The notes: generated from the sequence alone by a model not told the origin. Positions 34,831 to 50,942 are shown, numbered from the stretch's first letter. The stretch is DNA of 64,000 bases from Aquabacterium fontiphilum (GCF_009909205.1 NZ_JAAAPN010000005.1:84847-148846), one strand, 5' to 3'. Made by a program: numbers and translations.

Positions 34831-35199
34831 TTGAGCAACATCACCATCAACCGACGACGCAATGCGCTCACGCTGTTTCAGCTCTTTGCTGAAGAGGCGT
34901 TAGCCAAGGGCGTTCCGCCCAAAGGCCTGGAGCAGTCCTTCGCACGCCACGTCGAGATCTCACCCAGCATGTGGAGCCAGATCAAGTCATCTCGCCCTAT
35001 TGGCGACAAGATGGCCAGGCAGATCGAGCAGCACTGTGGCAAGCCATCGGGATGGCTTGATGAAGAGCGAGAGGCGGCAAGCATGACGCCAGCCGAGCAG
35101 CATTTCCTGTCTCTGGCCCTTCAGGCCTGGCGCTCAACCAATACGGCGGGGCGCAAGGCGCTCAGAGAGCATCTCAAGAAGCTGCTTACTCAAAGCTGA
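34831..35199 (+). CDS. Small XRE/Cro-like helix-turn-helix DNA-binding protein (122 aa)
   Basis: …VEISPSMWSQIKSSRPIGDKMARQIEQHCGKPSGWLDEE… fits an HTH_XRE-type recognition helix pattern. Sits in the island, convergent with rtcA (14-nt overlap of 3-prime ends). Confidence 0.65.
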   Translation: MSNITINRRRNALTLFQLFAEEALAKGVPPKGLEQSFARHVEISPSMWSQIKSSRPIGDKMARQIEQHCGKPSGWLDEEREAASMTPAEQHFLSLALQAWRSTNTAGRKALREHLKKLLTQS

Positions 35200-36232
35200 C
35201 CAACCATCCTGCTTGCCTGTCTGCCTGCTCACTTACAGTGATCTTGACTGGCAAGAAGCGACGGATCACATCCAGATTGCTCCAAGCATGCTCCGTCATC
35301 TCGCTGGCCACGTAGGCGCCCGGCTTTCCGCTGGCTTGTACGGCCAATGCCATGGGCAGCGCCAGTTGATCAGCCAGGTGAGGCCCCACCGGGGCTTTGC
35401 TCTCCATATAGGCGGACACCTCCTTGGCCAGAAGCCTGGCCACCTTTTCAGAGGTAACCTCCTTCTCGCCAAAGCTGGTGAACACCTCGGTCACGTGCTC
35501 ATGCACCAGTGTGGCCATGAGCGCATTGCCGGGGCCTTCATTCTGGCGCGATGGCATGACACTCAACTGCTCCGCCGCCCAGCCCAATGTGCGGCCCAAA
35601 GCCTCCAGTTCGCGGTCCGCAATGCGACGAGACAAGCCGGGCACGAGGCATTCGCCAAAAGCCGCTTTGTGTGCGCCACGATCTAGCAGATCGAAGGGTG
35701 ACAGGCCTTCGGATGTAGGCTTGATGCAAAGCTCGACCTCGCCTCCGCCTGCTGGATAGAAGCCGTGGCGCAAGAGTTTGCCCTCCAGCGTCACGCCCAT
35801 GCGTGCAAGCAAAGGAGCAAAGGTACGCTCGATGAAGTGCCAGGTCGGCGCCATCGGGTTATGCGTACCGCCAGACAGTTTCAGCGTACTGGGTGCCTTG
35901 GTCTGCATCAAAGCCGGCAACACCGTTTGCACAACCAGCATGCAGCTGCCCGCCGTACCGATGGCAAAGCTGTAGTCACCCGCCTGCGTGGTGCCTGGCA
36001 CAAAACGCAAGGCGGTCGAGCCCAGTTCGGCGCCGTCCACCGTGGCCCCAGAAACAGCTTGGGCAGCATGCACGCAGACGAGGTGCTGGCGCATCAAGCC
36101 AGGCTTGGGACGCTTGGCGCGAATCTGGCTGATCTGTACCGGCTTGCCCGTACACATGGACAAGGACAAGGCGGAGCGCAGGATCTGGCCGCCGCCTTCG
36201 CCTTGAGAGCCATCAATATCAATCACGTTCAT
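35186..36232 (-). CDS. rtcA: RNA 3-prime-terminal phosphate cyclase
   Basis: MNVIDIDGSQGEGGGQILRSALSLSMCTGKPVQISQIRAKRPKPGLMRQHL… near-identical motif order to E. coli RtcA. Start at Met7 of the track ORF. Confidence 0.9.
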   Translation of the reverse strand: MNVIDIDGSQGEGGGQILRSALSLSMCTGKPVQISQIRAKRPKPGLMRQHLVCVHAAQAVSGATVDGAELGSTALRFVPGTTQAGDYSFAIGTAGSCMLVVQTVLPALMQTKAPSTLKLSGGTHNPMAPTWHFIERTFAPLLARMGVTLEGKLLRHGFYPAGGGEVELCIKPTSEGLSPFDLLDRGAHKAAFGECLVPGLSRRIADRELEALGRTLGWAAEQLSVMPSRQNEGPGNALMATLVHEHVTEVFTSFGEKEVTSEKVARLLAKEVSAYMESKAPVGPHLADQLALPMALAVQASGKPGAYVASEMTEHAWSNLDVIRRFLPVKITVSEQADRQAGWLVSFE

Positions 36233-37055
36233 TCTTCTTTTCCTCCACATGGGTCACCACGTCAAACAGAAAGACATCCAGGCCTGAGGTGTCTGGTCGT
36301 GGATCGTGTTCTACCTTGTGCGCCTGCGCCATTTGCAACTCACTTTCGATGAATGCGTGTATGGCTGGCCACCTGGTGCTCGTCGCAGCCTCTCCAGCGC
36401 GCATCTTCACTTCAAGCAAGCGATTGAGTTCGTCGAGAAGGGCATCGTCCCGCACCGTCGCCTGTGCCAGCTCTGCAAAGCGCATGGGCGGTACACCCCC
36501 GCCTTCTCGGATCCAACGTGCAGCCAACAGCGGACGCAGCACATACAGATACTTCTTGTAGCGCACAACCTCTCCCTTGAGGTGCTCCCGAAAGTTCTTC
36601 TTGGCCATCGACACGTAGTGGTGATAGCCGCGAAGCGACGAGAAGCCTGTTTCAGCCAGGCCCCGAAAACGGGTCATGACATCCACGTCCTCCATGTACA
36701 CGATGGGCGAACGCAGCCATTCCAGCAAGGTTGGGTTCGATCGTTTGAGCAATTGCAGGGCTTTGCGCAGATCCCAGCCGTTGATGTCCAGGTCGCCGCT
36801 GATGGGCAACTCGATCACATCACGGTGTGGATCAACCGAGAGATACCAGGCGGGTCGGTTCACGTAGATGAAACGCACGTCGTAGTCGCTGTCTGGCGAA
36901 GCGAATCCCCAGCCTCGGCTGCCCGATTCGCAAGCGAAGAGCACCTTCACGTCGTGCTGGTGCTCCAAAGCTCGCAGGCTATCCATGATCTGTGCCCGGA
37001 CGGCATCGTCCACAGGATGGGCGCTCAGCAGTTTTTCATGTTGTGTGTGGTTCAT
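36219..37055 (-). CDS. Pol-beta-superfamily nucleotidyltransferase (COG3541-like) inserted between rtcB and rtcA
   Basis: NTase motif …FACESGSRGWGFASPDSDYDVRFIY (GS…DxD). Overlaps the rtcA start by 14 nt. 278 aa. Confidence 0.7.
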   Translation of the reverse strand: MNHTQHEKLLSAHPVDDAVRAQIMDSLRALEHQHDVKVLFACESGSRGWGFASPDSDYDVRFIYVNRPAWYLSVDPHRDVIELPISGDLDINGWDLRKALQLLKRSNPTLLEWLRSPIVYMEDVDVMTRFRGLAETGFSSLRGYHHYVSMAKKNFREHLKGEVVRYKKYLYVLRPLLAARWIREGGGVPPMRFAELAQATVRDDALLDELNRLLEVKMRAGEAATSTRWPAIHAFIESELQMAQAHKVEHDPRPDTSGLDVFLFDVVTHVEEKKNERD

Positions 37056-37103
37056 GGTTCCTCCCTGAGCAGCCCTGTTGTCAGAGCCTGTTGCAGAGAA
37101 TGT

Positions 37104-38324
37104 CTATCCTTTGACGCACAGCACCTGCTTGAGTGTGTAAACCACCTCCACCAGGTCCTTTTGCGCTTCCATCACGGCGTCGATGTCCTTGTAGGCCATC
37201 GGAATCTCGTCGATCACGTTCTCGTCCTTGCGGCATTCCACGCCTTCGGTCGCCTTGATCTGATCGGCCACCGTGAACAGTTTCTTGGCCTTGGTGCGGC
37301 TCATCACGCGACCAGCGCCATGGCTGCAGCTCTCGAAACTCTCCGGGTTACCCAGGCCGCGCACGATGTAGCTGCGCGCGCCCATGCTTCCCGGAATGAT
37401 CCCCAGCTCACCCTTCTTGGCGCTCACCGCACCCTTGCGGGTCACGAAGACGTCTTCACCGAAGTGCGTTTCCTTCTGCACGTAGTTGTGGTGACAGTTC
37501 ACCGCTTCCACGTGGGCCTCAAAAGGCTTGGTGATGACCTTGCGCACGGTGGCGACCAGGTTCCTCATCATCACCTCGCGGTTGAGCCTGGCGAACTTCT
37601 GTGCCCAGCTCACGCCACGCACATAGTCACCGAAGTACTGCGCACCTTCTTCGAAGTACGCCAGATCCTTGTCCGGAAGATTCCGCTGATGTTGCTCGGC
37701 GTCCTTCTTGGCCAGTTCGATGAAGGTCGTGCCGATGGCATTACCCACACCGCGGGATCCTGAGTGCAGCATGAACCACACGGCTCCAGCTTCGTCCAGG
37801 CAGACCTCGATGAAGTGGTTACCCGTGCCGAGCGTTCCCAGGTGTTTGCGGTTGTTGGTGTTGCGCAGGCGAGGGTACTTCTCGCAGATGGCTTCGAACT
37901 CATCCACCAGCGTGGCCCAGGCCTGGTCCACCAGTTCAGGCGGGTTTTCCCAGCTCCCTTGGTCGCGTCCGCGCTGCCTGATGGGCGTCATGCCGTGGGG
38001 CACCGCTTTCTCAATGGCCGAGCGCAGAGGGCCCAGATTGTCAGGGAGGTCCTCAGCACGCAGTGAGGTCTTGCACGCCATCATCCCGCAGCCGATGTCC
38101 ACCCCCACTGCGGCGGGAATGATGGCCTTGATGGTCGGGATCACCGAGCCCACCGTCGCGCCGATGCCAAGGTGCACGTCGGGCATGGCAGCGATGTGCT
38201 TGAACACGATGGGCAGACGCGCGGCATTGGCCAGTTGTTGGCGTGCGTCGTCTTCCACGGGGACGCCTTTGGTCCACATCTTGATGGGCAGCGCGCCTTC
38301 TTGCTGTTCGACGTTGTAGTTCAT
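37104..38324 (-). CDS. rtcB: RNA-splicing ligase RtcB (3-prime-phosphate/5-prime-hydroxyl RNA ligase)
   Basis: 406 aa; …MPDVHLGIGATVGSVIPT…, …GTGNHFIE…, …SCSHGAGRVMSR… conserved RtcB metal- and GMP-histidine motifs. GAAGGTGAG RBS. Confidence 0.95.
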   Translation of the reverse strand: MNYNVEQQEGALPIKMWTKGVPVEDDARQQLANAARLPIVFKHIAAMPDVHLGIGATVGSVIPTIKAIIPAAVGVDIGCGMMACKTSLRAEDLPDNLGPLRSAIEKAVPHGMTPIRQRGRDQGSWENPPELVDQAWATLVDEFEAICEKYPRLRNTNNRKHLGTLGTGNHFIEVCLDEAGAVWFMLHSGSRGVGNAIGTTFIELAKKDAEQHQRNLPDKDLAYFEEGAQYFGDYVRGVSWAQKFARLNREVMMRNLVATVRKVITKPFEAHVEAVNCHHNYVQKETHFGEDVFVTRKGAVSAKKGELGIIPGSMGARSYIVRGLGNPESFESCSHGAGRVMSRTKAKKLFTVADQIKATEGVECRKDENVIDEIPMAYKDIDAVMEAQKDLVEVVYTLKQVLCVKG

Positions 38325-38374
38325 GGTGCTCTCACCTTCTGATCAATGTTCTTTCCTTGTGTGCCTTCTCTATC

Positions 38375-38389
38375 GCAATGGGTGTGCCA
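38375..38389 (-). promoter_or_regulatory. Sigma-54 (-24/-12) promoter for rtcB
   Basis: Minus-strand sequence TGGCAC-ACCCA-TTGC matches the TGGCAC-N5-TTGC consensus exactly, about 50 nt upstream of the rtcB ATG and oriented toward rtcB. Confidence 0.7.
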
Positions 38390-38532
38390 ACTTGCTTTGG
38401 TCGGATGGGTGGCCTGTCTATCTCTTTGATTTGAAATGGATTTCTGCTATTTTGGCCTGTACATCAAAAAGCTATCGTTGGTAGATGCGCCTTGCGAATT
38501 AGAATAAAAGATAAATAAATAGCCAAAAAGAT

Positions 38533-40143
38533 ATGGCCAAGAAAACAGTCGTCATTGGGTTTCTGGGGTCGCAGCTGGATGCGGGGCAAGGTGCAGGGCG
38601 CTGGGAGAAGTGGCGGCCGACGGTCTCATTGGCACAGCATGAAGACACCTTGATCCATCGCGTGGAGTTGCTTCACTCGCCACAGCACATCCGCCTGGCT
38701 GAGCGTGTGAAGGAGGACATCACTTCGGTGTCGCCGGATACCGAGGTTCGGCTGATCGAGATGGCGCTTGCCGACCCATGGGACTTTGGTGAGGTGTACG
38801 CCGCCTTATATGACTGGGTGAAGGCTTATCCCTTCAAACCCGAGCGGGAGCAGTATTGGGCGCACATCACAACCGGCACGCACGTGGCACAGATCTGCAT
38901 GTTCTTGTTGGTGGAGGCCGGGTTCATTCCTGGCGTGCTGTTGCAGACATCCCCGCCTCGAAAGCAAACCCATGGGAACCCGGGCACCTATACGCTGATC
39001 GACCTGGATCTCTCACGCTATGACATCCTGGCCCAGCGTTTCGAGCAAGAGCACCGCGATGCGCAGGCCTTTCTCAAAAGCGGCATCCCAACCCGCAACA
39101 AGCACTTCAACGCATTGATTGACGAGATCGAGCGCGTGGCCGTTCGATCCACTGCGCCCATCTTGTTCACTGGCCCGACAGGTGCCGGCAAGTCGCATTT
39201 GGCCCGGCGCATGTTCGAATTGAAGAAAGCGCGGCACCAGGTCAAGGGCCTCTTCGTGGAGGTGAACTGCGCAACCTTGCAAGGTGATGGCGCTGCCTCG
39301 ACCCTTTTCGGACACAAGAAGGGCGCGTTCACCGGCGCGGTGGTCGATCGCCCGGGGTTACTGTGTACCGCCCATGAAGGCGTGCTGTTTCTGGATGAGA
39401 TCGGTGAGCTGGGGCTCGATGAGCAGGCCATGCTGCTCAAAGCCGTCGAGGAAAAGCGTTTCTATCCAGTGGGCAGTGACAAGGAGGTTGCCAGCGACTT
39501 CCAATTGATCGCTGGCACCAACCGCGATCTGCGCCTGGACGTGGCGGCAGGTCGCTTTCGTGAAGACCTATATGCCCGTGTGAACATCTGGTCGTACGAG
39601 CTGCCCGGCTTGTCTCAGCGCACCGAGGACATCGAGCCCAATGTAGACCACCTGCTGGCCAGGAGCGGAGTAGAGATGGGGCGTGCCGTTCGCTTCAATG
39701 CCGAAGCGAAGTCCATGTACATGCGCTTTGCGCAATCTTCAGAGGCTGCTTGGCTGGGTAACTTCCGTGACCTGACGGCCAGCGTGACGCGCATGGCCAC
39801 CTTGGCTGAGGGCGGTCGTATCACCACCGATCTGGTTGAGGCTGAACTGCAGAGGCTGCGATGGATGTGGCAGCGGGCCGATCATGACAATGATGCTGCC
39901 AGCGAGGCCGTGGATCTCAGTCAATGGATTGAGCCCAAGACGCTTGCTGACATGGACCTGTTTGATCGCTTGCAACTGCAGGCGGTGATCGGCGTGTGCT
40001 TGACGGCCAAAAGCCTGTCTGATGCTGGTCGGCGCTTGTTTGACCGATCCCGCGAGCAGCGTTCTGCTGTGAATGATGCCGACAGGTTGCGCAAGTACCT
40101 GGCGAAGTTTGGCTTGAGTTGGCAACTCTTGACGAAGAGATAG
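38533..40143 (+). CDS. rtcR: Sigma-54-dependent transcriptional activator of the rtc operon (N-terminal domain resembling the RtcR ligand-sensing domain + AAA+ + HTH)
   Basis: MAKKTVVIGFLGSQLDAGQGAGRWEKWRPTVSL… (RtcR N-terminal domain); AAA+ sigma54-interaction motifs GPTGAGKSHLAR, GAFTGA, ELGLDEQAMLLKAVEEKRFYPVGS. Divergent from rtcB. Confidence 0.9.
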   Translation: MAKKTVVIGFLGSQLDAGQGAGRWEKWRPTVSLAQHEDTLIHRVELLHSPQHIRLAERVKEDITSVSPDTEVRLIEMALADPWDFGEVYAALYDWVKAYPFKPEREQYWAHITTGTHVAQICMFLLVEAGFIPGVLLQTSPPRKQTHGNPGTYTLIDLDLSRYDILAQRFEQEHRDAQAFLKSGIPTRNKHFNALIDEIERVAVRSTAPILFTGPTGAGKSHLARRMFELKKARHQVKGLFVEVNCATLQGDGAASTLFGHKKGAFTGAVVDRPGLLCTAHEGVLFLDEIGELGLDEQAMLLKAVEEKRFYPVGSDKEVASDFQLIAGTNRDLRLDVAAGRFREDLYARVNIWSYELPGLSQRTEDIEPNVDHLLARSGVEMGRAVRFNAEAKSMYMRFAQSSEAAWLGNFRDLTASVTRMATLAEGGRITTDLVEAELQRLRWMWQRADHDNDAASEAVDLSQWIEPKTLADMDLFDRLQLQAVIGVCLTAKSLSDAGRRLFDRSREQRSAVNDADRLRKYLAKFGLSWQLLTKR

Positions 40144-40217
40144 ATTCGGTTCGCTGTCCGAATCGTGTCACGGACTTCCCTTAGACTGCTGAAAAAAATG
40201 AGGAGGAGCGTGCTGTC

Positions 40218-41549
40218 ATGGCGCTGACGATGGAGGGTGTGATCGCGCTGGCGCCAGACGATGCGTCAGCCAAGGCTGCGCGTGGCTTGACGGCGCCGTC
40301 CAAATGGCCTTTGCTCGGTGCCAATGACCTGGCGGTTTGGGGGGAATGCCAAGGCAGTGGCTCTAAACCGTATCAGACACAGGTGGACTTGAGCGGCCCA
40401 GCCTTTCGGTGCAGTTGCCCGAGTCGCAAGTTTCCTTGCAAGCATGGTCTGGCGCTGCTGTTGATTCAAGTGCAAAGTCCGCAGTTGTTTCAGGGTAAGG
40501 ATGTGCCGGCGTGGGTGGACGAGTGGCTGTCATCCCGCGTAGAGAAAGCGCAGAAGAAGGAAGAGCGGCAGACCCAGAAAGCTGCGGTGCCAGTCGACCC
40601 ACAGGCCGCAGCCAAGCGTGAGGCGCAGCGTTGGCAGCGCATGGAAGTGGCCGCCCAGGAGTTGCAGCGCTGGTTGACTGATCAGTTGACCAGTGGACTG
40701 GGGGCGCTCGACGTTGAATCACTCAAAACCTGGCAGACCATGGCTGCGCGCATGGTCGACGCGCAGGCGCCTGGTTTGGGTATGCGTCTTCGTGATGCGG
40801 CCGCTGGGGTGAAGCAGGGAGAAGACTGGCCCGAGCAGACCCTGGCTCGCCTGGGCATGCTGCAATTGATCTGTGATGCCATGGCACGCCGAAGCAGTTT
40901 GAGCGCGCCCTTGCAGGCTGAACTGCGAACCGTTCTGGGTTGGCCCCATGACAAGGCCGACGTACTGGCTGAAGGTGAACGTGTTCATGATCGCTGGACG
41001 GTATTGGGCGTGGCGACCGATGAGCGTGACGACAAGTTGACAGAGCGCCGCGTGTGGTTGCACGGTGAGCAAACTGGCCGTCGGGCCTGGGTGCTGGATC
41101 ATGCGTTTGGCGGTCGGGGGTTTGAACAAGCCTGGCTGACCGGCACCAGCGTCGAATGCACGCTGGCGTTCTTCCCCGGGGCGAGCGCCCTGCGTGCGCT
41201 GGCCGCGGAGGTGCACGGGCCCCCTCAGTGCGCTGTTTGGCCCAGCACCACATTGAACGAGGAGTGGCAGCGCGTGGCAAAACGCATGGCGGCCAGCCCC
41301 TGGGTGAACTTGCACCCGGTGGTCATCCCGGATGCTGTGCCTTGCCAGTCAGGTGAGCGCCTTGCCTTGGTTGCGGACGGGCGCTCATGGCCGTTGATCG
41401 TGAGGGACACGGACACCTGGACATTCCTGGCGTACAGCGGCGGGCACCCGGTGCAAGTCATGGGAGAGTGGAATGGTCGTGCGTTAAGGCCGCTGACAGC
41501 TTGGCATGCCACTGACGCGTCGGCCGTCTGGCAAGAGGGGGTGGCATGA
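40218..41549 (+). CDS. SWIM zinc-finger family protein (first gene of a five-gene cassette)
   Basis: SWIM CxC…CxH motif …FRCSCPSRKFPCKHGLALLL…; GAGGAGGAG RBS; 443 aa. Confidence 0.8.
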   Translation: MALTMEGVIALAPDDASAKAARGLTAPSKWPLLGANDLAVWGECQGSGSKPYQTQVDLSGPAFRCSCPSRKFPCKHGLALLLIQVQSPQLFQGKDVPAWVDEWLSSRVEKAQKKEERQTQKAAVPVDPQAAAKREAQRWQRMEVAAQELQRWLTDQLTSGLGALDVESLKTWQTMAARMVDAQAPGLGMRLRDAAAGVKQGEDWPEQTLARLGMLQLICDAMARRSSLSAPLQAELRTVLGWPHDKADVLAEGERVHDRWTVLGVATDERDDKLTERRVWLHGEQTGRRAWVLDHAFGGRGFEQAWLTGTSVECTLAFFPGASALRALAAEVHGPPQCAVWPSTTLNEEWQRVAKRMAASPWVNLHPVVIPDAVPCQSGERLALVADGRSWPLIVRDTDTWTFLAYSGGHPVQVMGEWNGRALRPLTAWHATDASAVWQEGVA

Positions 41550-43093
41550 GCAATGTGTGGACGCCACTGTTGCCCGTGGCCATGGTGGGCACAGCGCGCC
41601 AATCGGTGTCGGCGAGCTGGTCAGGCCAGGTCGGCGAGATGATCTCACAGACGCTCGATCGGGCCAGTGATGCGCCCACGGGTGTGTTGCGGGTGGCCGG
41701 GATCCTGTGCATCTGTGGCCTGGCGGGGGCGCAAGGATTGGTCGAGACGGCTCCCTTGCCAAAGGCGGCGCCGGATGATGTGCTGCCTGCTGTTCAGGAC
41801 GGCACGCTGCTTGCGCTGATCGACTGGGCCTTTCGTGACGGGCCTGCGCGGCTGCACCACGAGGTGTGTGTGGCACTGTCTGTCGCGGGGTATCGGTTGC
41901 CCGTTCGTTTGCTGCCCTTGTCGCTCGATCTGGGGCGTCGGTCTGTGGCCTTGCGTTCGGCGTTGCTGCCGATTTTGGGCAACAGAGGTCTGTGGCTGGC
42001 GGCTCAGCGAGATGATTGGCGCTATGCCACTGGCGTGAGCACTGAAGGCACTGGCGAGGCCATCTGGACCGATGGCAACATCGAGCAGCGCAGGGCTTTT
42101 CTGGCCAGTGAGCGGGCAGAGCATCCTCAGGCTGCGCGAGAGCGCCTGATGCAGGCGCTGGCAGAGCTCTCGGCCAACGAGCGGGCGGACCTCGTCACGG
42201 TGCTGGCCCATGAGCTGACGCTGGATGATGAGCCCTTGCTTGATGCTTTGCGAGCCGATCGCAGCAAGGAGGTGAGGGTTGAGGCGCTGAACTTGCTTCT
42301 TCGTTTGCCAGGGGCGGCGCATCCGCAACGTGCCATGGCGCGCATGGCCATGCAGGTCATAAAAGAGCGTGTGCTGCTGCATCAACGCTGGGTGGTAGAG
42401 GCGCCCACGGCCATGGGGGATGACTGGAAGGTCGACAACCTCGACGCACCTCGGCCCCCACATGAGTCCCTGGGCGATCGCGCGTGGTGGTTGTATCAAA
42501 TGGCCAGGCAAGTGCCGTTGCCTTGGTGGACCGAGCATACGGGCATGGAGGCCAACGAGCTGCTCAAATGGGCTCAAGGCACCGACTGGCACGAGGCTTT
42601 GGTGCGCGCCTGGCGCGATGTCTTGATGGCGACTGCCGATCCAGCCTGGTGCGAAGCTTTTTTGAGCCAATGGCCTCAGACCAAACTGCGTGATGATCCG
42701 GCCTCCGTGCTCGCGCTGTTGCCGCGCGAACGACGAGAGCAGCATTGGATGCGCCATCTTCGCGACGCATCAGAGGCCCCCTTGCAGGTGCTTGTGCCGC
42801 AAATGCTCGGTGCGTGCGCTGCTGGCGATACCCTGTCCGCCCCGTTGTCGAAAGCGCTGGCGCATGTGCTGCAGCAGCGCGCGGCAAGCCAGACGCTGAG
42901 CAATGATCAGCATCTGCGGTGGTACTTGCCAGACCTGGTTTGCGTCCTGGACCACAGCGTGCTGAGGCAGATCGATCAATGGCCTCGTCATGTCGACGAG
43001 GCTGCTTCATTCTCCACAACGATGCATGCGGTGACGCAAATCGTGGCTACTCGCCTCGCTCTTCAACAACTCACAACCTCGATGACACCATGA
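41546..43093 (+). CDS. Hypothetical protein (515 aa, Leu/Ala-rich, helical-repeat-like), second gene of the cassette
   Basis: Start overlaps the SWIM gene stop (ATGA) and the end overlaps the next gene start (ATGA). No motif recognised by eye. Confidence 0.6.
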   Translation: MSNVWTPLLPVAMVGTARQSVSASWSGQVGEMISQTLDRASDAPTGVLRVAGILCICGLAGAQGLVETAPLPKAAPDDVLPAVQDGTLLALIDWAFRDGPARLHHEVCVALSVAGYRLPVRLLPLSLDLGRRSVALRSALLPILGNRGLWLAAQRDDWRYATGVSTEGTGEAIWTDGNIEQRRAFLASERAEHPQAARERLMQALAELSANERADLVTVLAHELTLDDEPLLDALRADRSKEVRVEALNLLLRLPGAAHPQRAMARMAMQVIKERVLLHQRWVVEAPTAMGDDWKVDNLDAPRPPHESLGDRAWWLYQMARQVPLPWWTEHTGMEANELLKWAQGTDWHEALVRAWRDVLMATADPAWCEAFLSQWPQTKLRDDPASVLALLPRERREQHWMRHLRDASEAPLQVLVPQMLGACAAGDTLSAPLSKALAHVLQQRAASQTLSNDQHLRWYLPDLVCVLDHSVLRQIDQWPRHVDEAASFSTTMHAVTQIVATRLALQQLTTSMTP

Positions 43094-44181
43094 ATGCGCC
43101 AACCCAACATGTGATGCGCCAGCATGCCGAGCAGCAGTTCGCACAAGAGCTGGATGAATTGCGCAAACAGGACCAGCGACCCAAACCAGAGAACTGGATG
43201 CTGTCACCCTGGGCCGTGGTGCAGTACCTGATGGGCGCCAAGCTAGACAACGGCTTCGAGGTCAGCGCCAAGTACATCGGCTCTGCCCGCTTGATGGAAA
43301 TCGCGGTGGCCACTTTGGCCACTGATCGTGGATTGTTGTTGTACGGCGTTCCAGGCACGGCGAAATCGTGGGTCTCCGAGCATCTGGCCGCGGCCATCAG
43401 TGGTGACTCCACCTTGCTGATCCAAGGCACGGCAGGCACCAGCGAAGAGCAACTGCGCTATGGGTGGAACTATGCCCAGTTGCTGGCCAACGGTCCATCT
43501 GACAAGGCGCTGGTTCCCAGCCCGCTCATGCAGGCCATGCGCAGCGGCAAGATCGCCCGGGTGGAAGAGCTCACGCGCATCCCCGCCGATGTGCAGGACA
43601 GCCTGATCACGGTCTTGTCTGAGAAGACATTGCCTATTCCCGAGTTGGGCAGCGAAGTGCAGGCGGTGCGCGGCTTCAGCGTCATTGCCACAGCCAACAA
43701 CCGCGACAAGGGTGTCAACGAACTGTCGGCCGCGTTGAAGCGCCGGTTCAACACAGTCGTTTTGCCTGTGCCTGGCAATGAAGATGATGAAGTGGCCATT
43801 GTTGTCAAGCGCGTGGCCGAGATGGGGCGGGCATTGCAGCTGCCTGCCGAGCCACCTGCACTGAAGGAAGTGCGACGCATCGTGCAGATTTTTCGCGAAT
43901 TGCGCAATGGCAGAACAGAAGATGGCAAAACGCAGATCAAGTCGCCCAGTGCGACCTTGTCAACGGCCGAAGCGATCTCTGTCATTAACAGCGGTATGGC
44001 ATTGGCTGGTCATTTCGGTGACGGCGTGTTGCGACCCGTGGACATGGCGTCTGGTCTGATAGGCGCGGTCGTGAAAGACCCGGTGCAAGACCAAGTGGTG
44101 TGGAACGAGTACCTCGAAACGGTGGTGAAAGAGCGCAGCGACTGGAAGGACCTCTACCGCGCCTGCCGCGATCAGAGCTGA
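43090..44181 (+). CDS. MoxR-type AAA+ ATPase
   Basis: Walker A LYGVPGTAKSW, Walker B …KIARVEELTRIPADVQDSLITVL…, sensor/arginine …VIATANNRD…RRFNTVV. Start at Met58 of track ORF 42919..44181. 363 aa. Confidence 0.8.
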   Translation: MNAPTQHVMRQHAEQQFAQELDELRKQDQRPKPENWMLSPWAVVQYLMGAKLDNGFEVSAKYIGSARLMEIAVATLATDRGLLLYGVPGTAKSWVSEHLAAAISGDSTLLIQGTAGTSEEQLRYGWNYAQLLANGPSDKALVPSPLMQAMRSGKIARVEELTRIPADVQDSLITVLSEKTLPIPELGSEVQAVRGFSVIATANNRDKGVNELSAALKRRFNTVVLPVPGNEDDEVAIVVKRVAEMGRALQLPAEPPALKEVRRIVQIFRELRNGRTEDGKTQIKSPSATLSTAEAISVINSGMALAGHFGDGVLRPVDMASGLIGAVVKDPVQDQVVWNEYLETVVKERSDWKDLYRACRDQS

Positions 44182-44193
44182 GGTTGCGGCCGA

Positions 44194-46494
44194 ATGAGCG
44201 AGCCTCATTTTTTTGGCATCAGGCACCATGGACCAGGCTGCGCGCGCAGCTTGGTTCGCGCGTTTGCCGTCCTCAAGCCAGACTGCGTCTTGATAGAAGG
44301 GCCGCCTGAGGGCGACGCCTTGCTGCCCTTGATCGCCAGCGAGGGCATGCGGCCCCCGGTGGCCTTGCTCACCTATTGTCCGGACGAGCCCCGGTTGGCC
44401 GTGTACCACCCCTTTGCCGTGTTTTCGCCTGAATGGCAGGCTGCGCACTGGGCTGTTGTCGCAGGTGTCCCGGTCCGATTCATTGACTTGCCGATCACGC
44501 ATGGGCTGGCGCTGGACAAAGTGCAGCGTGACCTTGAGCGGGTTGCCGATCAGACGGCCGAGCCAGACGCCACCGGCCTTGATGCACATGGGGCTTCTCC
44601 AGCGTCTGTCCTGCCCGAGCCCGTGGAACGCCGCGATCCATTGAACTGGCTCGCGCATGCTGCCGGTTATGCAGACGGCGAATCCTGGTGGAATCACATG
44701 GTCGAGGAGCGAGGAGACGGCGAGCAACTCTTTGCCGCCATCTCCGAAGCCATGCTTGCGCTGCGGGCCGACTGGAAAGACAGCCCTTGTGATGAGCATG
44801 AGGCCCACCGGGAGGACTTGAGAGAGGCTCATATGCGGCAGTGCATCCGTGCTGCCCAGAAGGAAGGCTTCGAGCGTATCGCGGTCGTCTGTGGTGCCTG
44901 GCATCTGGGGGGGCTGCAAGCGAGCACCACGGCGAAGGCCGATCAGACCTTGCTCAAAGGCTTGCCCAAGGTCAAGGTGCAAACGACGTGGGTGCCGTGG
45001 ACCTACCGTCATTTGACGCGTGCCAGTGGTTATGGTGCGGGCATCGCCTCGCCAGGGTGGTACGAGCACCTCTGGGCCAGCCATGACAACGCGCAGCCTC
45101 GGACCGTGACCTGGCTGGCGCGCGTGGCTCGGCTGATGCGAGAGCGGGATCTCGATTGTTCATCGGCGCACTTGATCGAGGCGGCCCGATTGGCCGATGC
45201 TCTGGCGGCCCTGCGAGATCGTCCTGCCCCCGGCCTGGAAGAGCTGCATGAGGCGAGTCGTACCGTCCTGACCATGGGCGACGAATCGGTGCTGCATTTC
45301 ATTCGGGATGCCTTGGTGGTCGGCGATCGGCTGGGCCAAGTCCCGTCCGATGTGCCCACAGTGCCCTTGCAGAGGGATGTCGAGCAGGCACAGAGATCCT
45401 TGCGGCTCAAACCCGAAGCCACACAGAAGACGCTGGACCTTGATCTGCGCCATGCCAATGACCTGGCGCGCAGCCATCTGCTGCACCGCCTGCACCTGCT
45501 GGACATCCCTTGGGGCACGATGACCAAGGTGGGCCGGTCGTCCAAGGGTACCTTTCACGAGGTCTGGTCTCTCCAATGGCAGCCTGAGTTCGTGCTGCGT
45601 CTGATCGAAGCCAGCCAGTGGGGGCAAACCGTGCAGGACGCCGCCGTGGCCAAGGTGGTCGATCAGTGCTCGCGTATTGGCACCTTGTCTGAGTTGTCGG
45701 CTTTGGTCGACCGGGTCTTGCTGGCGGATCTGCACACGGCCGTGGCGGTGGCCACACGCGCACTCGAAGATCGGGCTGCGCTGACTGGTGATGCCCTGCA
45801 ACTTCTGGCCGCCTTGCCCTCATTGAGCAATGTGTTTCGCTATGGCAACGTGCGACAGACCGATGCGGCTATGGTCGGGCATGTGCTGGATGGCCTCATT
45901 GTTCGGGCCGCCATCAGCCTGCCGCTGGCTTGCGCTGCATTGGACGACGCCGCTGCTGATGCGTTGCGGGACAAGCTGCTCGGCGCCCATGCGGCGGTCA
46001 AGCTGCGAGACGGTGATGAGCAGGCCGAACTCTGGCAGCAATCCTTGAACCAGATCGCCCTTCACTCTGGCGCACACGAGTTGCTGCAAGGCGTGGCGGT
46101 GCGCTTGCTGCTGGATGATGGCACCTGGACCGTGGACCGAGTCGCCAGCGCCTTGTCATTGCACCTGTCATCTGGCGCCGAGCCTGCCAAAGCGGCCGCT
46201 TGGCTGGACGGCTTCCTGAACCGCAATGCGGTGGTACTGCTGCACGACGCCCGCGTCTGGCAACTCGTCAACGATTGGCTGGTGGGTTTGAACGAAGAGC
46301 ACTTCGTGCGTGTGCTGCCATTGGTGCGACGCACCTTCTCGGTTTTTGGTCCCAGCGAGCGTCGGGATCTGGGGCAGCGGGCCAGTCGCGGCGCACAGGT
46401 GCCTGCTGTGAAGATGGCACAGCCTCTCTGGGATGAAGACCGTGCCGTTCTGGCCTTGCCCGTCTTGCGGCAGATTCTGGGTGTGAACACATGA
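44194..46494 (+). CDS. Large hypothetical protein (766 aa), fourth gene of the cassette
   Basis: MSEPHFFGIRHHGPGCARSLV… Starts 12 nt after the MoxR gene and its end overlaps the VWA start. Function unknown. Confidence 0.6.
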   Translation: MSEPHFFGIRHHGPGCARSLVRAFAVLKPDCVLIEGPPEGDALLPLIASEGMRPPVALLTYCPDEPRLAVYHPFAVFSPEWQAAHWAVVAGVPVRFIDLPITHGLALDKVQRDLERVADQTAEPDATGLDAHGASPASVLPEPVERRDPLNWLAHAAGYADGESWWNHMVEERGDGEQLFAAISEAMLALRADWKDSPCDEHEAHREDLREAHMRQCIRAAQKEGFERIAVVCGAWHLGGLQASTTAKADQTLLKGLPKVKVQTTWVPWTYRHLTRASGYGAGIASPGWYEHLWASHDNAQPRTVTWLARVARLMRERDLDCSSAHLIEAARLADALAALRDRPAPGLEELHEASRTVLTMGDESVLHFIRDALVVGDRLGQVPSDVPTVPLQRDVEQAQRSLRLKPEATQKTLDLDLRHANDLARSHLLHRLHLLDIPWGTMTKVGRSSKGTFHEVWSLQWQPEFVLRLIEASQWGQTVQDAAVAKVVDQCSRIGTLSELSALVDRVLLADLHTAVAVATRALEDRAALTGDALQLLAALPSLSNVFRYGNVRQTDAAMVGHVLDGLIVRAAISLPLACAALDDAAADALRDKLLGAHAAVKLRDGDEQAELWQQSLNQIALHSGAHELLQGVAVRLLLDDGTWTVDRVASALSLHLSSGAEPAKAAAWLDGFLNRNAVVLLHDARVWQLVNDWLVGLNEEHFVRVLPLVRRTFSVFGPSERRDLGQRASRGAQVPAVKMAQPLWDEDRAVLALPVLRQILGVNT

Positions 46495-47678
46495 GCGCAT
46501 CATCGAATGACGACGACCGCCTGCGTCGCTGGCGAATGGTGCTGGGCGGCGAAGCTGAGCAGAGCTGCGGATCATTGACCGGTGCTATGGCCGAAATGGA
46601 CCAGGGCTTGGCTGCGCTTTATGAAGCGCAAGGGCCAGGTGGCTTGCAGTCCAGGGACAGGCGTGGCGGTCGGGGCGGTTCAGCCCCCAGTGTTGCGCGC
46701 TGGCTGGGTGACATCCGCAAGTACTTTCCCAGTTCTGTCGTACAGGTCATGCAGCGCGACGCATTGGAGCGGTTGAACATGCGCGACATGCTGCTGCAGC
46801 CCGAAATGCTCGAACGCGTGCAGCCTGATGTGCACCTGGTCGCCAACCTGATGGCCTTGTCCCGCGTGATCCCCGAGGGCACGAAAGAAACCGCCCGCAT
46901 GGTGGTGCGTCGGGTGGTGGATGACCTGATGAAACGGCTGGAAGACCCCATGCGATCGGCTGTCAGTGGCGCATTGGACCGCAGCCAGCGCAACCGCCGG
47001 CCACGTCATGCCGAGATCGATTGGCAACGCACCATACGGGCCAATTTGAAGCACTGGCAGCCCGACTACCAAACCGTCGTGCCAGAGACCTTGATCGGCT
47101 ATGGCCGCAAAGCCCGCAAGCCGCAACGCGAGGTCGTTTTGTGCATCGACCAAAGCGGCTCCATGGCCAATTCGGTGGTGTATGCCAGTATCTTCGGTGC
47201 CGTCCTGGCCTCCTTGCCTGCGGTAGCCACCAAGCTGGTCGTGTTCGATACGGCGGTGGTTGATCTCACCGAGCAGCTTCATGATCCGGTCGATGTCTTG
47301 TTTGGTGTTCAGCTGGGTGGCGGCACGGACATCAATGGTGCGGTGGGCTACTGTCAATCGCTGATACGGGAACCACGCAACACGATCTTCGTGCTGATAT
47401 CGGACCTGTACGAAGGCGGCGTCGAAGCCAACCTCTTGCGTCGTGCCATCGAACTGGTCGACAGCGGCGTGCAGTTCATCACCCTGTTGGCCTTGAGCGA
47501 TGAAGGCGCACCTGCCTACGACCATGCCTTGGCAGCCAAGTTGGCGGCATTGGGCGTGCCTTCATTTGCTTGCACGCCCGATGCCTTTCCGGGCTTGATG
47601 GCTGCGGCCATTCGGCGCGATGACATATCGGCGTGGGTGGCCGCTCAGGGGCTTGTGACCCGTGCAAAGGTTCGATGA
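46491..47678 (+). CDS. von Willebrand factor type A (VWA) domain protein with MIDAS motif
   Basis: …REVVLCIDQSGSMANSV… (DxSxS MIDAS) and …IFVLISDLYEGG…; 395 aa. Canonical partner of MoxR ATPases. Confidence 0.8.
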   Translation: MSASSNDDDRLRRWRMVLGGEAEQSCGSLTGAMAEMDQGLAALYEAQGPGGLQSRDRRGGRGGSAPSVARWLGDIRKYFPSSVVQVMQRDALERLNMRDMLLQPEMLERVQPDVHLVANLMALSRVIPEGTKETARMVVRRVVDDLMKRLEDPMRSAVSGALDRSQRNRRPRHAEIDWQRTIRANLKHWQPDYQTVVPETLIGYGRKARKPQREVVLCIDQSGSMANSVVYASIFGAVLASLPAVATKLVVFDTAVVDLTEQLHDPVDVLFGVQLGGGTDINGAVGYCQSLIREPRNTIFVLISDLYEGGVEANLLRRAIELVDSGVQFITLLALSDEGAPAYDHALAAKLAALGVPSFACTPDAFPGLMAAAIRRDDISAWVAAQGLVTRAKVR

Positions 47679-48005
47679 GCGCGAAGTTGTTTAGGACTTT
47701 GGCGTTTAGGTAGGACCGCCTGAAGCTTCGCAAGTGCTTGGTGCACAACGCGCATCGTTCACGACTTTGTTCGGTGACAACAGAGCGGGACATGGCGCCG
47801 AGGTTTGGGATTCAAGAGCCACGGATTGCCTCAGGGAGCACGCTTTCGAGCGACTCTTGGGCGGCGCGCCGTCGTTGCTTTCGGCATGAGTCAAGCGACT
47901 GCTGTGCTGCGTGAGGGGTATGGTCGTCCAGGATCTTGAATGGATCCGGGATGGTATCTTCAAACGGGCGAGAGAATCGTTAACTCAAACGTTCGGTAAA
48001 TGGAA

Positions 48006-50942
48006 TCAGAGGCGCCGGTCATGACGCCCCCCAGCCGCCAGCGCCAGCACCTCTGCCAAGTGCATCGGCAGGCCCAGCCCGGCCTGGCTGATCTGCTCGC
48101 GGCAGCTGAAACCGTTGGCGATCACGAGGGTGTCAGCCGGCGCCGAGCGGATCGCTGGCAGCAGCACGCGCTCGGCGCAGCGCTGCGAGACCTCGTACTT
48201 GTCGCGCTCGAAGCCGAACGAGCCGGCCATGCCGCAGCAGCCGGCATCCAGCAGGTTGACGTCGAGCCCCAGGCGCTGGAGCAGCGCCTGCTCGGCATCC
48301 AGGCCCAGCACGGCACGGTGATGGCAGTGCGCATGCACCAGCGCCTGTCTGTGCAGGGGAGTCCAGCCCGTGTCGACACCGGAGTCGAGGCGCGCCGCCA
48401 CGAAGTCGCCCAGCATCTGCGCCTGCTGGCGCAGCCGGCGTGCTTGCTGGTTGAAGGGCATGAGCGCGTGCAGTTCGTCCTTGAACACAGACATGCAGGC
48501 GGGCTCCAGCCCGATGACGGGCGTGCCGGCGCGGATGTCGGCGTCCAGCGCCTGAAGCACATGCTTGAGCTTGGCGCGGGCCTCGTCCAACAGGCCGAAC
48601 TCGTACAGCGGCCGCCCGCAGCACAGGGGCTGCGGCGGCACGACCACGTCGCAGCCCAGTTGCGTCAACACGCGCCAGGCGGAGGTGAGCGTATCGGGGT
48701 GGAAGTGGTTGTTGAAGGTGTCCGCCCACAGGATGACCCGCTGGCCTTGACGGTGCCCGGGCAGGCGATGCGCCCGATGAGCCGTGGTGAAGGGCAGGGG
48801 GGCGAAGGTTGGCAGGCGGCGTTGCGGCGCGATGCCGACGAGCCGCTTGAGCCAGGAGGCCGTGGGTTCGTGCTGGCTGAGGTAGTTGGCCAGCCGAGGG
48901 GCGTGAGCCGCCCACCGTGACCAGCGGTCGATGTGGCCGAACGCGTGGGCTGTCAGGGGCCGCAGCCGCCCGGCATAGTGGTGCGCCATGAACTCGGCCT
49001 TGTAGGTGGCCATGTCGACGCTGACGGGGCATTCGCGCTTGCAGCCCTTGCACGACAGGCAGAGGTCGAGTGCCTGTTTGACCGATTCGTTGCGCCAACC
49101 GTCTTTCAGCACGTCGCCTTCGGCCATCTCGAACAGCAGGCGAGCGCGTCCGCGCGTGCTGTGCATCTCGTCGCCCGTGGCCATGTAGCTGGGGCACATC
49201 AGGCCTTCTTGCTTGCGGCATTCGCCCACGCCCACGCAGCGCAGCAGCGCATGTGTGAAGCTGCCCGCGTCGTCAGGGTAGCGGAAGTGGGTGTCCAGGT
49301 CGGGGGTGTCGTAACGGGTGCCCAGCCGCAGGTTCTCGTCGGGCGCATAGGCGTCCACCACCTTGCCGGGATTCATGCGGTTGTGCGGGTCCCAGATGTG
49401 CTTGAAGGCCCGGAACGCTGTCATCAGGCGGGGGCCGTACATCAGGGGCAGCAGCGCCGCCTTGGATTGGCCGTCGCCGTGTTCGCCAGAGATGGCGCCA
49501 CCCATGCTGACAGCCAGCTGCGCGGCATCGTCAATGAAGCGACGAAAGCGCGCGATGCCCTGCGCGGTGACCAGATCGAAGTTGATGCGTGTGTGCACGC
49601 ATCCCTGCCCGAAGTGGCCGTATAGATCGGCTTCGTAGCCGTGCTGGTCCAGCAGCGCACGAAAGCGTCGCAGGTACTCGCCGAGCCGCTCGGGCGGCAC
49701 GGCGGCGTCCTCCCATCCCTCCCAGGTCAGGTGCTTGTCGGGCACGTGGGCTGTGGCGCCCAGCCCAGCCTCGCGAATGCGCCAGACCTGGTGTTGCTCG
49801 TCCGGGTCGGTGTAGAGCGCCATCGTGGGCGCGTCGGGGCTGGCTGACAGGGCCTGCATGGCAGCTTGCGCGTGCTGTGCCGCTTGTGCGGGGGTGTCGC
49901 CCCCGAACTCCACGAGCAGCCAACCTGCCCCGGAGGGCAGCAGCGCAAGCTCGTCCACCCGCAACCCGGATGCGCGCATGTCGTGGACGAGGTCGTCGTC
50001 CATGCCCTCCAGTGCGATGGGCCCGTGTTGCATCACCGTGCAGACATGGTCGCCCGCATCGTAGACGCTGGGGTAGCCCAGCACCAGCAACGCACGGTGG
50101 GCCGGGTTGTCCACCAGCCGCACGGTGGCTTCCAGCACGACGACGCAGGTGCCTTCGCTGCCCACCAGCGCCTGCGCGACGTGCATGGGCTGGCCGGGCA
50201 GCAAGGCATCGAGGTTGTAGCCAGACACGCGGCGGGGAATGTCGGGAAAGCGCGCGCGGATCTCATCACCGTACTGCGCACCCAGGGCGCGCAGCTCGGC
50301 GTGGATCTCGGCGATGCGGCCGCCCGCCAGCTGGATCGCCGCGAAGCAGGCGTCATCGACCTCACCGGCGTGCATGCGCGTGCCGTCGTACAGCAGGACG
50401 TCAAGGGCGACGATGTTTTCCTGCGTTTTGCCGCCCATCACCGAGTGGGGGCCGCATGAGTTGTTGCCGATCATGCCGCCCAGGGTGTTGTGATTGTGGG
50501 TGGACGGATCGGGCGCAAAGGTGAGGCCATGGCGCGCCGCCGCACGTCGGAGTTCGTCGAGCACCACGCCGGGCTCCACGCGGGCAACCTTGCGCGCCGG
50601 GTCGATCTCGATGATGCGGTTGAGATGCGCGGAGAAGTCGATGACGACGGCCGCGTTGCAGCATTGGCCGCACAGGCTGGTTCCGCCGCCCCGGGACAGC
50701 ACGGGCAGGTCGTGCTCGCGGCAGATGGCCACCGTGGTGACCACATCATCGACCGTGCGCGGGATGACCACGCCCACGGGCACCTGGCGGTAATTGGATG
50801 CGTCGGTCGCGTAAAGCGCCCGGCTCGCCGCATCGAAGCGCACGTCCGCCTGGGTGCGTGCGCGCAGCGCGGTCTCGACGGTGCGCATCACCTTGCCTGG
50901 CACCCGCTTTGCCGGGCGTGCATCTTGGAGTGGCTGGGCCAT
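48006..50942 (-). CDS. FAD-linked oxidase fused to a C-terminal Fe-S (CCG-type) domain, YdiJ-like 2-hydroxyacid dehydrogenase
   Basis: 978 aa; FAD-binding PCMH region …VVIPRTVDDVVTTVAICREHDLPVLSRGGGTSLCGQ…; C-terminal Cys clusters (CLSCKGCKRECP…, …CCGRP…, …DAGCCGMAGSFG). Confidence 0.8.
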   Translation of the reverse strand: MAQPLQDARPAKRVPGKVMRTVETALRARTQADVRFDAASRALYATDASNYRQVPVGVVIPRTVDDVVTTVAICREHDLPVLSRGGGTSLCGQCCNAAVVIDFSAHLNRIIEIDPARKVARVEPGVVLDELRRAAARHGLTFAPDPSTHNHNTLGGMIGNNSCGPHSVMGGKTQENIVALDVLLYDGTRMHAGEVDDACFAAIQLAGGRIAEIHAELRALGAQYGDEIRARFPDIPRRVSGYNLDALLPGQPMHVAQALVGSEGTCVVVLEATVRLVDNPAHRALLVLGYPSVYDAGDHVCTVMQHGPIALEGMDDDLVHDMRASGLRVDELALLPSGAGWLLVEFGGDTPAQAAQHAQAAMQALSASPDAPTMALYTDPDEQHQVWRIREAGLGATAHVPDKHLTWEGWEDAAVPPERLGEYLRRFRALLDQHGYEADLYGHFGQGCVHTRINFDLVTAQGIARFRRFIDDAAQLAVSMGGAISGEHGDGQSKAALLPLMYGPRLMTAFRAFKHIWDPHNRMNPGKVVDAYAPDENLRLGTRYDTPDLDTHFRYPDDAGSFTHALLRCVGVGECRKQEGLMCPSYMATGDEMHSTRGRARLLFEMAEGDVLKDGWRNESVKQALDLCLSCKGCKRECPVSVDMATYKAEFMAHHYAGRLRPLTAHAFGHIDRWSRWAAHAPRLANYLSQHEPTASWLKRLVGIAPQRRLPTFAPLPFTTAHRAHRLPGHRQGQRVILWADTFNNHFHPDTLTSAWRVLTQLGCDVVVPPQPLCCGRPLYEFGLLDEARAKLKHVLQALDADIRAGTPVIGLEPACMSVFKDELHALMPFNQQARRLRQQAQMLGDFVAARLDSGVDTGWTPLHRQALVHAHCHHRAVLGLDAEQALLQRLGLDVNLLDAGCCGMAGSFGFERDKYEVSQRCAERVLLPAIRSAPADTLVIANGFSCREQISQAGLGLPMHLAEVLALAAGGRHDRRL

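Follow-up and report, generated by a model that had tools for sequence, protein, structure and literature searches.

A cassette of five overlapping genes in Aquabacterium fontiphilum (GCF_009909205.1, NZ_JAAAPN010000005.1:84847-148846) raises the question of what a MoxR-class ATPase and a von Willebrand factor type A (VWA) protein do in the company of a SWIM zinc-finger protein and two large proteins of the Pfam families DUF5691 and DUF5682. MoxR-VWA pairs are widespread, and a client is known for only a few of them. Our answer is that the five genes form one coinherited operon related to yehLMPQ of Escherichia coli K-12, in which the DUF5682 protein is predicted to place a hydrolase beside the MoxR-VWA motor. 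Positions are those of the window, that is, the whole stretch of 64,000 nucleotides (nt) that was analysed, and the five open reading frames (ORFs) lie in it as follows.

40218-41549, plus strand: gene 1, SWIM zinc-finger protein, 443 amino acids (aa)
41546-43093, plus strand: gene 2, DUF5691 protein, 515 aa
43090-44181, plus strand: gene 3, MoxR-class AAA+ ATPase assigned to the YehL subfamily, 363 aa
44194-46494, plus strand: gene 4, DUF5682 protein, 766 aa
46491-47678, plus strand: gene 5, CoxE-type VWA protein, 395 aa

A preliminary description of the locus, made from the sequence alone, had seen five co-oriented ORFs joined by three ATGA start/stop overlaps and one 12-nt gap, and all of these are where it placed them. 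The overlaps fall at 41546, 43090 and 46491. Between genes 3 and 4 the TGA stop is followed after 12 nt by the ATG at 44194, with a GAGG spanning the stop, and the ATG of gene 3 is itself internal to a longer ORF that begins with GTG. The further claim, that this is one translationally coupled operon, is borne out by related loci, in which order and overlaps recur. In a scan of one genome per species, covering 477 close relatives of gene 4, 80 loci were fetched, about 70 of them complete; the order and strand SWIM-DUF5691-AAA-DUF5682-VWA are kept wherever the contig permits, and a VWA_CoxE gene is part of the operon in 77 of the 80. The overlap is conserved at the junction of genes 1 and 2 in 61 of 70 loci, of genes 2 and 3 in 50 of 75, and of genes 4 and 5 in 47 of 75. 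Such recurrence of gene order and overlap exceeds chance by far: the five genes are one translationally coupled operon and are inherited together, so that the parts list and its co-inheritance can be taken as observed.

Three of the genes have homologues in E. coli K-12. Gene 3 is 42% identical to YehL over its full length of 363 aa (E 6e-84), gene 5 is 36% identical to YehP (E 3e-81), gene 4 is 27% identical to YehM, likewise a DUF5682 protein, and YehQ is a SWIM protein. Judged by these similarities the cassette is a paralogous, architecturally distinct variant of yehL-yehM-yehP-yehQ. The two have in common a contiguous and tightly packed AAA_5-DUF5682-VWA_CoxE order, a SWIM gene in the operon, the Walker and MIDAS (metal ion-dependent adhesion site) motifs and the TIKI-type signature described below. 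They differ in that YehQ has 614 aa and is encoded last, whereas the cassette SWIM protein has 443 aa and is encoded first, and in that the E. coli type lacks DUF5691 and has a WGR/DUF4132 protein (YehI) and a small ORF upstream (the upstream genes being yehF, yehH, yehI and yehK), where the window has rtcR. Variovorax sp. KBW07 shares the E. coli-type layout, and Streptomyces has a related one; the genus Variovorax has both architectures, seen in different genomes. There are two stable architectures of the cassette family.

The preliminary description had presented the cassette as an uncharacterised candidate, which holds for its function and fails for its stand-alone novelty, since it is a variant of yehLMPQ with an ATPase of the YehL subfamily. 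Nor is it unknown territory, because the family is catalogued and the E. coli genes are named. YehL gives its name to one of the seven MoxR subfamilies, a subfamily without known function (PMC3893208). H-NS and StpA silence yehLM in E. coli (PMC3686432), the reduced-genome strain E. coli DGF-298 shows the yeh region to be dispensable (PMC10652928), and yehP is reported to have a +1 ribosomal frameshift site at codon 291 and a swarming phenotype when knocked out (PMC2790909). The operon is near-core in E. coli, where 5353 of 5426 complete genomes have it. We observed separately that DNA identity to yehL-yehQ (L081 14597-20945) is widely spread, with 934 records at 90-95%. Our literature search returned no paper that mentions DUF5682 or DUF5691 and none that assigns a function to yehLMPQ, and a search on MoxR, SWIM and vWA gave unrelated papers only. 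The DUF families are thus already known as Pfam entries, with function and fold assignment absent from the searchable literature, and what is new here is the assignment of a predicted TIKI-type hydrolase to DUF5682, the HEAT-like assignment of DUF5691, and the SWIM-DUF5691 and DUF5682-VWA fusions.

That genes 3, 5 and 1 encode a MoxR AAA+ ATPase, a VWA protein with a MIDAS and a SWIM protein had been proposed from the sequence, and Pfam agrees (AAA_5, E 7.5e-39; VWA_CoxE, E 3.2e-50; SWIM, E 1.3e-05), with the following motifs of the ATPase and VWA protein intact.

43345-43368, plus strand: Walker A of gene 3, GVPGTAKS, residues 86-93
Gene 3 residues 158-160, plus strand: Walker B, VEE
Gene 3 residues 238-240, plus strand: arginine finger, RRF
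47148-47162, plus strand: complete MIDAS motif (DxSxS) of gene 5, DQSGS, residues 220-224

The same motifs are kept in YehL and YehP. By sequence, gene 3 is a MoxR-class AAA+ ATPase with its catalytic motifs intact, and its placement in the YehL subfamily is indicated by pairwise E-values, in which YehL is nearer than NorQ. Its best solved relatives are the AAA modules of midasin (E 2.4e-17) and NorQ (E 3e-5). The NCBIfam scan of the cassette proteins produced matches to the ATPase only, all far below threshold. In gene 5 the VWA_CoxE match occupies residues 154-365 (nt 46950-47585) and is preceded by an N-terminal helical extension; as only about 30 residues remain after the match ends (365 of 395), the VWA protein carries no effector domain. 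Hydrophobic segments of the membrane-spanning type are missing from all five proteins (the maximum 19-residue hydropathy, 2.0, lies within the VWA core), and the system is therefore probably cytoplasmic.

Genes 2 and 4 are indeed large, as had been noted, but they are not devoid of recognisable domains, since both belong to families catalogued in Pfam. The DUF5682 match of gene 4 extends over residues 23-762 (E 1.8e-265), and the protein can be divided as follows.

44194-45093, plus strand: N-terminal ~300 residues of gene 4, a predicted hydrolase domain resembling TIKI, TraB and erythromycin esterase
45094-46494, plus strand: C-terminal ~465 residues of gene 4, a mixed region (~390-480) and then a helical-repeat region, from the secondary structure of the model

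The N-terminal domain has a candidate signature of the form GxxH...E...R...GxxH, made up of G8-H11, E35, R210-E211 and G234-H237. Among 378 DUF5682 relatives reaching down to about 25% identity, R210, E211 and G234 are present in all 378, H237 in 377, E35 in 374, H11 in 370 and G8 in 365. The order and spacing of the signature match those of the E. coli TraB-family protein YbaP (GSIH...ALIVE...R...GALH), and the spacing is close to that of RRSP, with 24 versus 28 residues from His to Glu and 27 versus 29 from Arg to His. The RRSP paper names the structures of ChaN, HopBA1, Bcr135 and PMT among the members of the TIKI superfamily and defines the catalytic set as two His and two Glu with a conserved Arg (PMC6254334); gene 4 has the two GxxH, a conserved Glu and the Arg. 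The modelled domain has the alpha/beta TIKI fold with a core of parallel beta-sheet. From the model and the essentially invariant signature, we predict that the DUF5682 N-terminal domain has the TIKI/TraB/erythromycin-esterase hydrolase fold. A physical tie to the motor is suggested by two strains of Streptomyces atratus, in which DUF5682 and VWA_CoxE are encoded in a single ORF of 1255 aa.

L090 7947-11714: DUF5682 and VWA_CoxE fusion ORF, Streptomyces atratus
L094 6947-10714: DUF5682 and VWA_CoxE fusion ORF, Streptomyces atratus

The two remaining proteins are also joined in one lineage. A single ORF of 1009 aa in Hymenobacter sp. HDW8 encodes the entire SWIM protein together with DUF5691 (hhalign E 1e-82; Pfam). 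Gene 2 itself matches DUF5691 with an E-value of 8e-110, is modelled as a HEAT/ARM-like alpha-solenoid, and is the fastest-evolving component of the cassette. It is 100% identical to the protein GTZ97_07420 of A. fontiphilum, which assigns the window to that species or to a very near relative of it. In gene 1 the zinc-finger residues C65, C67, C74 and H76 are invariant across 49 homologues.

40410-40445, plus strand: SWIM finger of gene 1, CxCx6CxH, residues 65-76; a charged linker and a C-terminal domain come after it
L087 2183-5212: SWIM and DUF5691 fusion ORF, Hymenobacter
L093 1184-4212: SWIM and DUF5691 coding region, Hymenobacter

Several closer relationships were tried and rejected. For DUF5691 as a diverged DUF4132 or YehQ, hhalign gave no signal (a probability of 0.3% for DUF5691 against YehI), and the alignment of gene 1 with YehQ is confined to the SWIM finger and not significant. 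There was likewise no signal for a 623-aa downstream protein of Streptomyces as a relative of gene 1. A PDB sequence search returned no match for genes 1, 2, 4 and 5.

The family is broadly distributed. The five-gene order is found on a Deinococcus megaplasmid, on Rhizobium plasmids and in Hymenobacter (Bacteroidota), and it recurs at lower similarity in Fusobacterium, although tblastn did not pick up the DUF5691 gene there; in all, the cassette order occurs in at least five phyla. Sequence matches of about 45% identity to gene 4 in actinomycete records (Nonomuraea, Nocardia) suggest that the DUF5682 family extends to actinomycetes. In a library of 1.84 billion proteins this family comprises 4374 clusters at 50% identity. 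Across a common set of genomes identity is 78-93% for the ATPase, about 68-90% for the VWA protein, 54-78% for DUF5682, 42-68% for the SWIM protein and 32-58% for DUF5691. This distribution agrees with the early view of an uncharacterised system that is not universal housekeeping, and in different phyla genes 2 and 4 recur as conserved partners. A Comamonadaceae metagenome-assembled genome (L076) is the sole apparent exception to the five-gene set: SWIM, DUF5691, ATPase and DUF5682 genes are present, and a VWA gene was not detected within 10 kb downstream of position 12316. Small ORFs without a Pfam match were seen between the ATPase and DUF5682 genes in Deinococcus (78 aa, L086 6759-6995) and Hymenobacter (203 aa, L087 6362-6973), and 5' of the ATPase gene in E. 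coli (YehK, 105 aa, L081 13973-14290) and Variovorax (144 aa, L082 8362-8796); they may be a sixth, poorly conserved component.

In some relatives the operon has other genes nested within it, as listed here.

L017 12219-13963 and L031 12171-13906: HEC-02A/B, between the DUF5682 and VWA genes, co-oriented
L071 10197-11403: DarT and NADAR antitoxin (DarTG), between the DUF5682 and VWA genes, co-oriented
L037 7625-14181: a 1659-aa NTPase-like protein (weak AAA_22 match) and a 526-aa protein, between the DUF5682 and VWA genes, co-oriented
L044 12567-13376: a 269-aa protein, between the DUF5682 and VWA genes, co-oriented
L066 5604-9959, Variovorax sp. OK212: an Hsp90/HtpG paralogue (E 1e-31 to TRAP1) and a 784-aa TPR protein, between the ATPase and DUF5682 genes
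L072 8024-9768, Candidatus Competibacter: a SIMPL/DUF541 protein and a 201-aa ORF, between the ATPase and DUF5682 genes

Nesting of other defence genes within an operon is a known pattern of defence systems, and HEC denotes Hma-embedded candidates. Defence and toxin-antitoxin modules appear to have a hotspot of insertion at the junction of genes 4 and 5. With 87-90% identity between their embedded proteins, L017 and L031 represent one ancestral event.

We propose, with a confidence that falls a little short of even, that the MoxR ring and a MIDAS adaptor gate a TIKI-type hydrolase, for which a SWIM-HEAT module picks the target. In the MoxR-VWA couples RavA-ViaA, CbbQ-CbbO, NorQ-NorD, CoxD-CoxE and midasin the ring uses ATP and remodels a partner held by the MIDAS (PMC3893208, PMC7159879). 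The ring of gene 3 would, as in these couples, spend ATP to pull on a partner through the MIDAS adaptor, and the VWA protein would hold DUF5682 as that partner, an assignment made because of the DUF5682-VWA fusion. The pull would turn the hydrolase on or off, or would supply it with substrate, and a peptide or ester bond would be cleaved as the output. Fused in one lineage, the SWIM and HEAT proteins would make up a separate, fast-evolving module that recognises the target or trigger.

As to the biological role, we lean slightly and only tentatively to stress or conflict in a broad sense over maturation, a leaning that takes in the narrower defence-system reading discussed below. It is prompted by the nested HEC-02 and DarT-NADAR modules, the silencing by H-NS and StpA, the dispensability of the yeh region, the low G+C and the fast evolution of SWIM and DUF5691. 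It is doubtful, although worth stating for its consequences, that YehL-type cassettes at large are an unrecognised class of ATP-gated proteolytic machines, in which a TIKI-type protease is under the mechanical control of a 'split midasin' (MoxR ring and MIDAS adaptor) and is directed to its target by a SWIM-HEAT receptor, serving as an immune, abortive-infection or regulated-proteolysis module conserved from E. coli to Deinococcus, Bacteroidota, Fusobacteria and actinomycetes.

A number of observations weigh against this proposal. For the hydrolase, a Foldseek search of the DUF5682 model against PDB gave no significant match, Pfam TraB matches were below threshold in three of eight diverse DUF5682 members (E 0.019, 0.037 and 0.68), and an hhalign alignment of the DUF5682 profile with YbaP covers the second GxxH only, is short and is not significant. 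That the signature residues cluster into one site of the model is assumed, and ChaN and PMT show that the TIKI fold can be non-catalytic (PMC6254334). For the recognition module, a frameshift-laden sister plasmid record of H. radiodurans annotates two overlapping genes and not a SWIM-DUF5691 fusion, and because that record splits the ORF, the fusion evidence is limited to one plasmid lineage. The interactions of the components, their catalysis and the biological role are inferred. For a role in conflict, PADLOC-DB v2, a set of defence models, gave for the cassette proteins only IetA at the P-loop of the ATPase (E 0.004) and nothing for the other four. In the flanking scan, which covered the 130 nearest ORFs at E<=1e-10, no PADLOC family was matched by more than one ORF, with about four such ORFs in all; the remaining flanking ORFs are metabolic or transport genes without a recurrent partner, and two fully annotated loci are alike in this. 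The near-core status of yehLMPQ points in the same direction. In phage and viral collections the family is all but missing, with an unverified faecal contig as the one match in 50,697 phage records and a single match in 2.9 million viral contigs. There is therefore no sign of an arms race carried by phages, and a phage origin of the cassette was rejected.

The first alternative is that the five proteins are a maturation or assembly chaperone like CoxD-CoxE, NorQ-NorD, CbbQ-CbbO and RavA-ViaA, activating, or inserting a cofactor into, an enzyme encoded elsewhere, with a ChaN- or TraB-like domain that binds a ligand or cofactor instead of cleaving a target. Every experimentally studied MoxR-VWA pair is a maturation factor (PMC3893208, PMC7159879), the VWA protein of the cassette belongs to the CoxE type, E. 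coli has yehLMPQ as a near-core operon, the flanks consist of ordinary metabolic genes, and the Hsp90 paralogue and TPR protein inside the operon of one relative would suit a chaperone theme. However, no client gene adjoins the cassette in a conserved manner: the commonest neighbour family accounts for 5 of the 130 nearest ORFs, and the genes flanking the cassette in the window are not recurrent. The invariant catalytic-type GxxH/E/R/GxxH would suit an enzyme better than a ligand binder, CobN/BchH-like and metal-cluster genes are absent, and the Rfam scan in and upstream of the cassette showed neither a riboswitch nor any other known regulatory RNA. We regard maturation as somewhat unlikely, and the early suggestion of a metallo-chaperone complex is not supported either, for want of a conserved client gene beside the cassette.

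The second alternative narrows the conflict role to a true immune system against phages or plasmids, one of the vWA-MoxR conflict type, in which SWIM-HEAT would sense the invader and MoxR-VWA would release a TIKI-type protease as a toxic or abortive effector. The nested modules speak most directly for it, namely HEC-02A/B in L017 and L031 (E 9e-161 and 3e-59) and DarT with its NADAR antitoxin in L071; by a conservative hand tally defence matches are found in 4 of 13 embedded versus 4 of 130 flanking ORFs (Fisher p 0.002). Toxins with the TIKI fold are known in RRSP and HopBA1 (PMC6254334), the E. coli homologue is silenced by H-NS (PMC3686432), and the cassette is patchy across phyla and frequently on megaplasmids. 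A link to defence had been put forward for checking at the outset, and the nested modules of some relatives are the part of it that stands; the cassette has no PADLOC match of its own, none of its five proteins qualifying, and its flanks are not defence islands. The embedding events that are independent number only two, the third components that define the published ternary systems are absent, and near-core status in E. coli would be unusual among immune systems. Nor does the Rtc-adjacent island of the window harbour a known defence system: outside the cassette, its only PADLOC match is the CARF regulator RtcR. We consider a dedicated immune system unlikely.

A third alternative arises from the immediate neighbourhood of the cassette, which comprises the following features.

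27872-32570, minus strand: FtsH-like (AAA and M41 peptidase, 676 aa), Kelch-repeat (sub-threshold Pfam, 40 versus 50 bits) and SPFH/Band-7 proteins, left edge of the low-G+C region
32801-34065, minus strand: five tRNA genes, Thr-TGT, Glu-TTC, His-GTG, Pro-TGG and Arg-ACG (Rfam 43-66 bits), low-G+C island
35186-40143: complete Rtc RNA-repair module, with rtcA, rlaP (Pol-beta-family nucleotidyltransferase) and rtcB on the minus strand and the divergent rtcR CARF/sigma-54 activator on the plus strand
40119-40146: weak sigma-70-like site 5' of gene 1, from the promoter scan
40143-40164: hairpin after the rtcR stop codon, from the terminator scan
40200-40208, plus strand: Shine-Dalgarno-like GAGGAGGAG, 9 nt 5' of the gene 1 ATG, from direct reading of the sequence

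The promoter and terminator scan gave counts near those of shuffled controls. An island beside RNA-repair and tRNA genes had been described from the start, and the dip in G+C is real: in 2-kb windows G+C is 0.58-0.63 between about 28 and 48 kb versus 0.65-0.70 in the remaining window, and by gene it is 0.59-0.63 in the five cassette genes and 0.66-0.69 in the two downstream genes. The tRNA genes and rtcA, rlaP, rtcB and rtcR lie directly upstream of the cassette. With Rfam scores of 43-66 bits, the five tRNA genes may be island-borne spares. The FtsH-like, Kelch-repeat and SPFH/Band-7 proteins have no PADLOC match. On the right side of the cassette, a 306-aa ORF with an ATG start (48000-48920, plus strand) has no Pfam or PADLOC match and is antisense over its whole length to a gene of 978 aa for a FAD-oxidase/Fe-S protein (48006-50942, minus strand); it is most likely spurious and of a kind common in high-G+C DNA.

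The linkage of the cassette to the Rtc and tRNA island is nonetheless no general feature, being specific to the window genome and one relative. Flanks are variable among the loci, and the genes that flank the cassette in the window do not recur except for RtcB and SPFH in one relative and SPFH in two others (an SPFH homologue adjoins the cassette in L007, L072 and L080). A functional linkage to Rtc, tRNA or SPFH genes was accordingly rejected, such neighbours recurring in only 1-3 of about 70 loci. It is very improbable that the cassette is a midasin-like remodeller of ribosomes or ribonucleoproteins acting with RtcB and RtcA after RNA damage. In favour are the distance of 74 nt from rtcR to the start of gene 1, which follows it on the same strand, the midasin/Rea1 AAA modules as best solved relatives of the ATPase, and the RtcB and SPFH genes upstream of the cassette in L007. 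Against it, the remaining related loci have no rtc genes in their flanks, the 25 Pfam neighbour families listed for the 130 nearest flanking ORFs do not include an Rtc family, yehLMPQ does not adjoin rtc in E. coli, and the midasin similarity is restricted to a generic AAA_5 module.

The proposal that a MoxR-VWA motor gates a TIKI-type hydrolase has consequences whichever role proves correct. The YehL subfamily, although present in E. coli K-12, has lacked a functional clue since it was defined, and there is now a hypothesis that can be tested by mutation; the fusions and the two architectures predict binding partners, and such tests are feasible in the best genetic model because nearly all complete E. 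coli genomes have the homologous operon. If the cassette is an ATP-gated protease or an immune module, a new mechanistic class would be added; if it is a maturation factor, discovery of the client would fill a gap in the annotation of E. coli K-12.

It remains to place the cassette among known systems. With the TIKI/TraB/PrgY/GumN/ChaN/erythromycin-esterase superfamily (RRSP, Tiki, EreB/EreC, HopBA1) the DUF5682 N-terminus would share its predicted fold and the order of motifs. Unlike that superfamily, DUF5682 is too diverged in sequence to reach the Pfam TraB threshold, its N-terminal domain has an insertion of about 175 residues that includes a disordered loop and is followed by some 465 further residues, and it appears coupled to a MoxR-VWA motor, a coupling that we found described for no superfamily member. 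An aerobic cobaltochelatase or Mg-chelatase (CobNST, BchHID) was rejected, as there is no large CobN/BchH subunit. Midasin/Rea1, which acts in eukaryotic ribosome assembly, combines AAA_5-type modules with a MIDAS domain as the cassette does, but in midasin a single giant polypeptide carries six AAA modules together with the MIDAS in cis, whereas the cassette has a single-module ATPase, a separate VWA gene and no ribosome-biogenesis context; with one AAA_5 module in 363 aa and the VWA domain encoded apart, it is not midasin proper.

The vWA-MoxR ternary conflict systems, of VMAP, iSTAND, FtsH and beta-propeller types (Kaur et al. 2020, PMC7159879), have in common with the cassette a core of MoxR and CoxE-like VWA proteins, further conserved components and possibly a peptidase-like effector output. 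The suggestion in the preliminary description that the cassette is such a system did not survive comparison: no VMAP, iSTAND, FtsH or beta-propeller Pfam domain is found in the five proteins, the VWA protein has no effector fused to its C-terminus, and the bpMoxR profile PF20030 scores 22.4 bits against gene 3, below its 27-bit cut-off, over 50 residues. The paper on ternary systems makes no mention of SWIM, YehL or TraB (PMC7159879). As the defining features are absent, the cassette was rejected as a published ternary system. With CoxD-CoxE, NorQ-NorD, CbbQ-CbbO and RavA-ViaA it shares the adjacency of a MoxR-class ring gene and a MIDAS-bearing VWA gene of the CoxE family; these pairs lie beside client enzyme genes or have a known client, whereas the cassette has no conserved client neighbour. 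Unlike the known maturation couples, it adds three conserved proteins, including the predicted hydrolase, and would in its working be a MoxR-VWA couple to which an enzyme and a receptor have been added.

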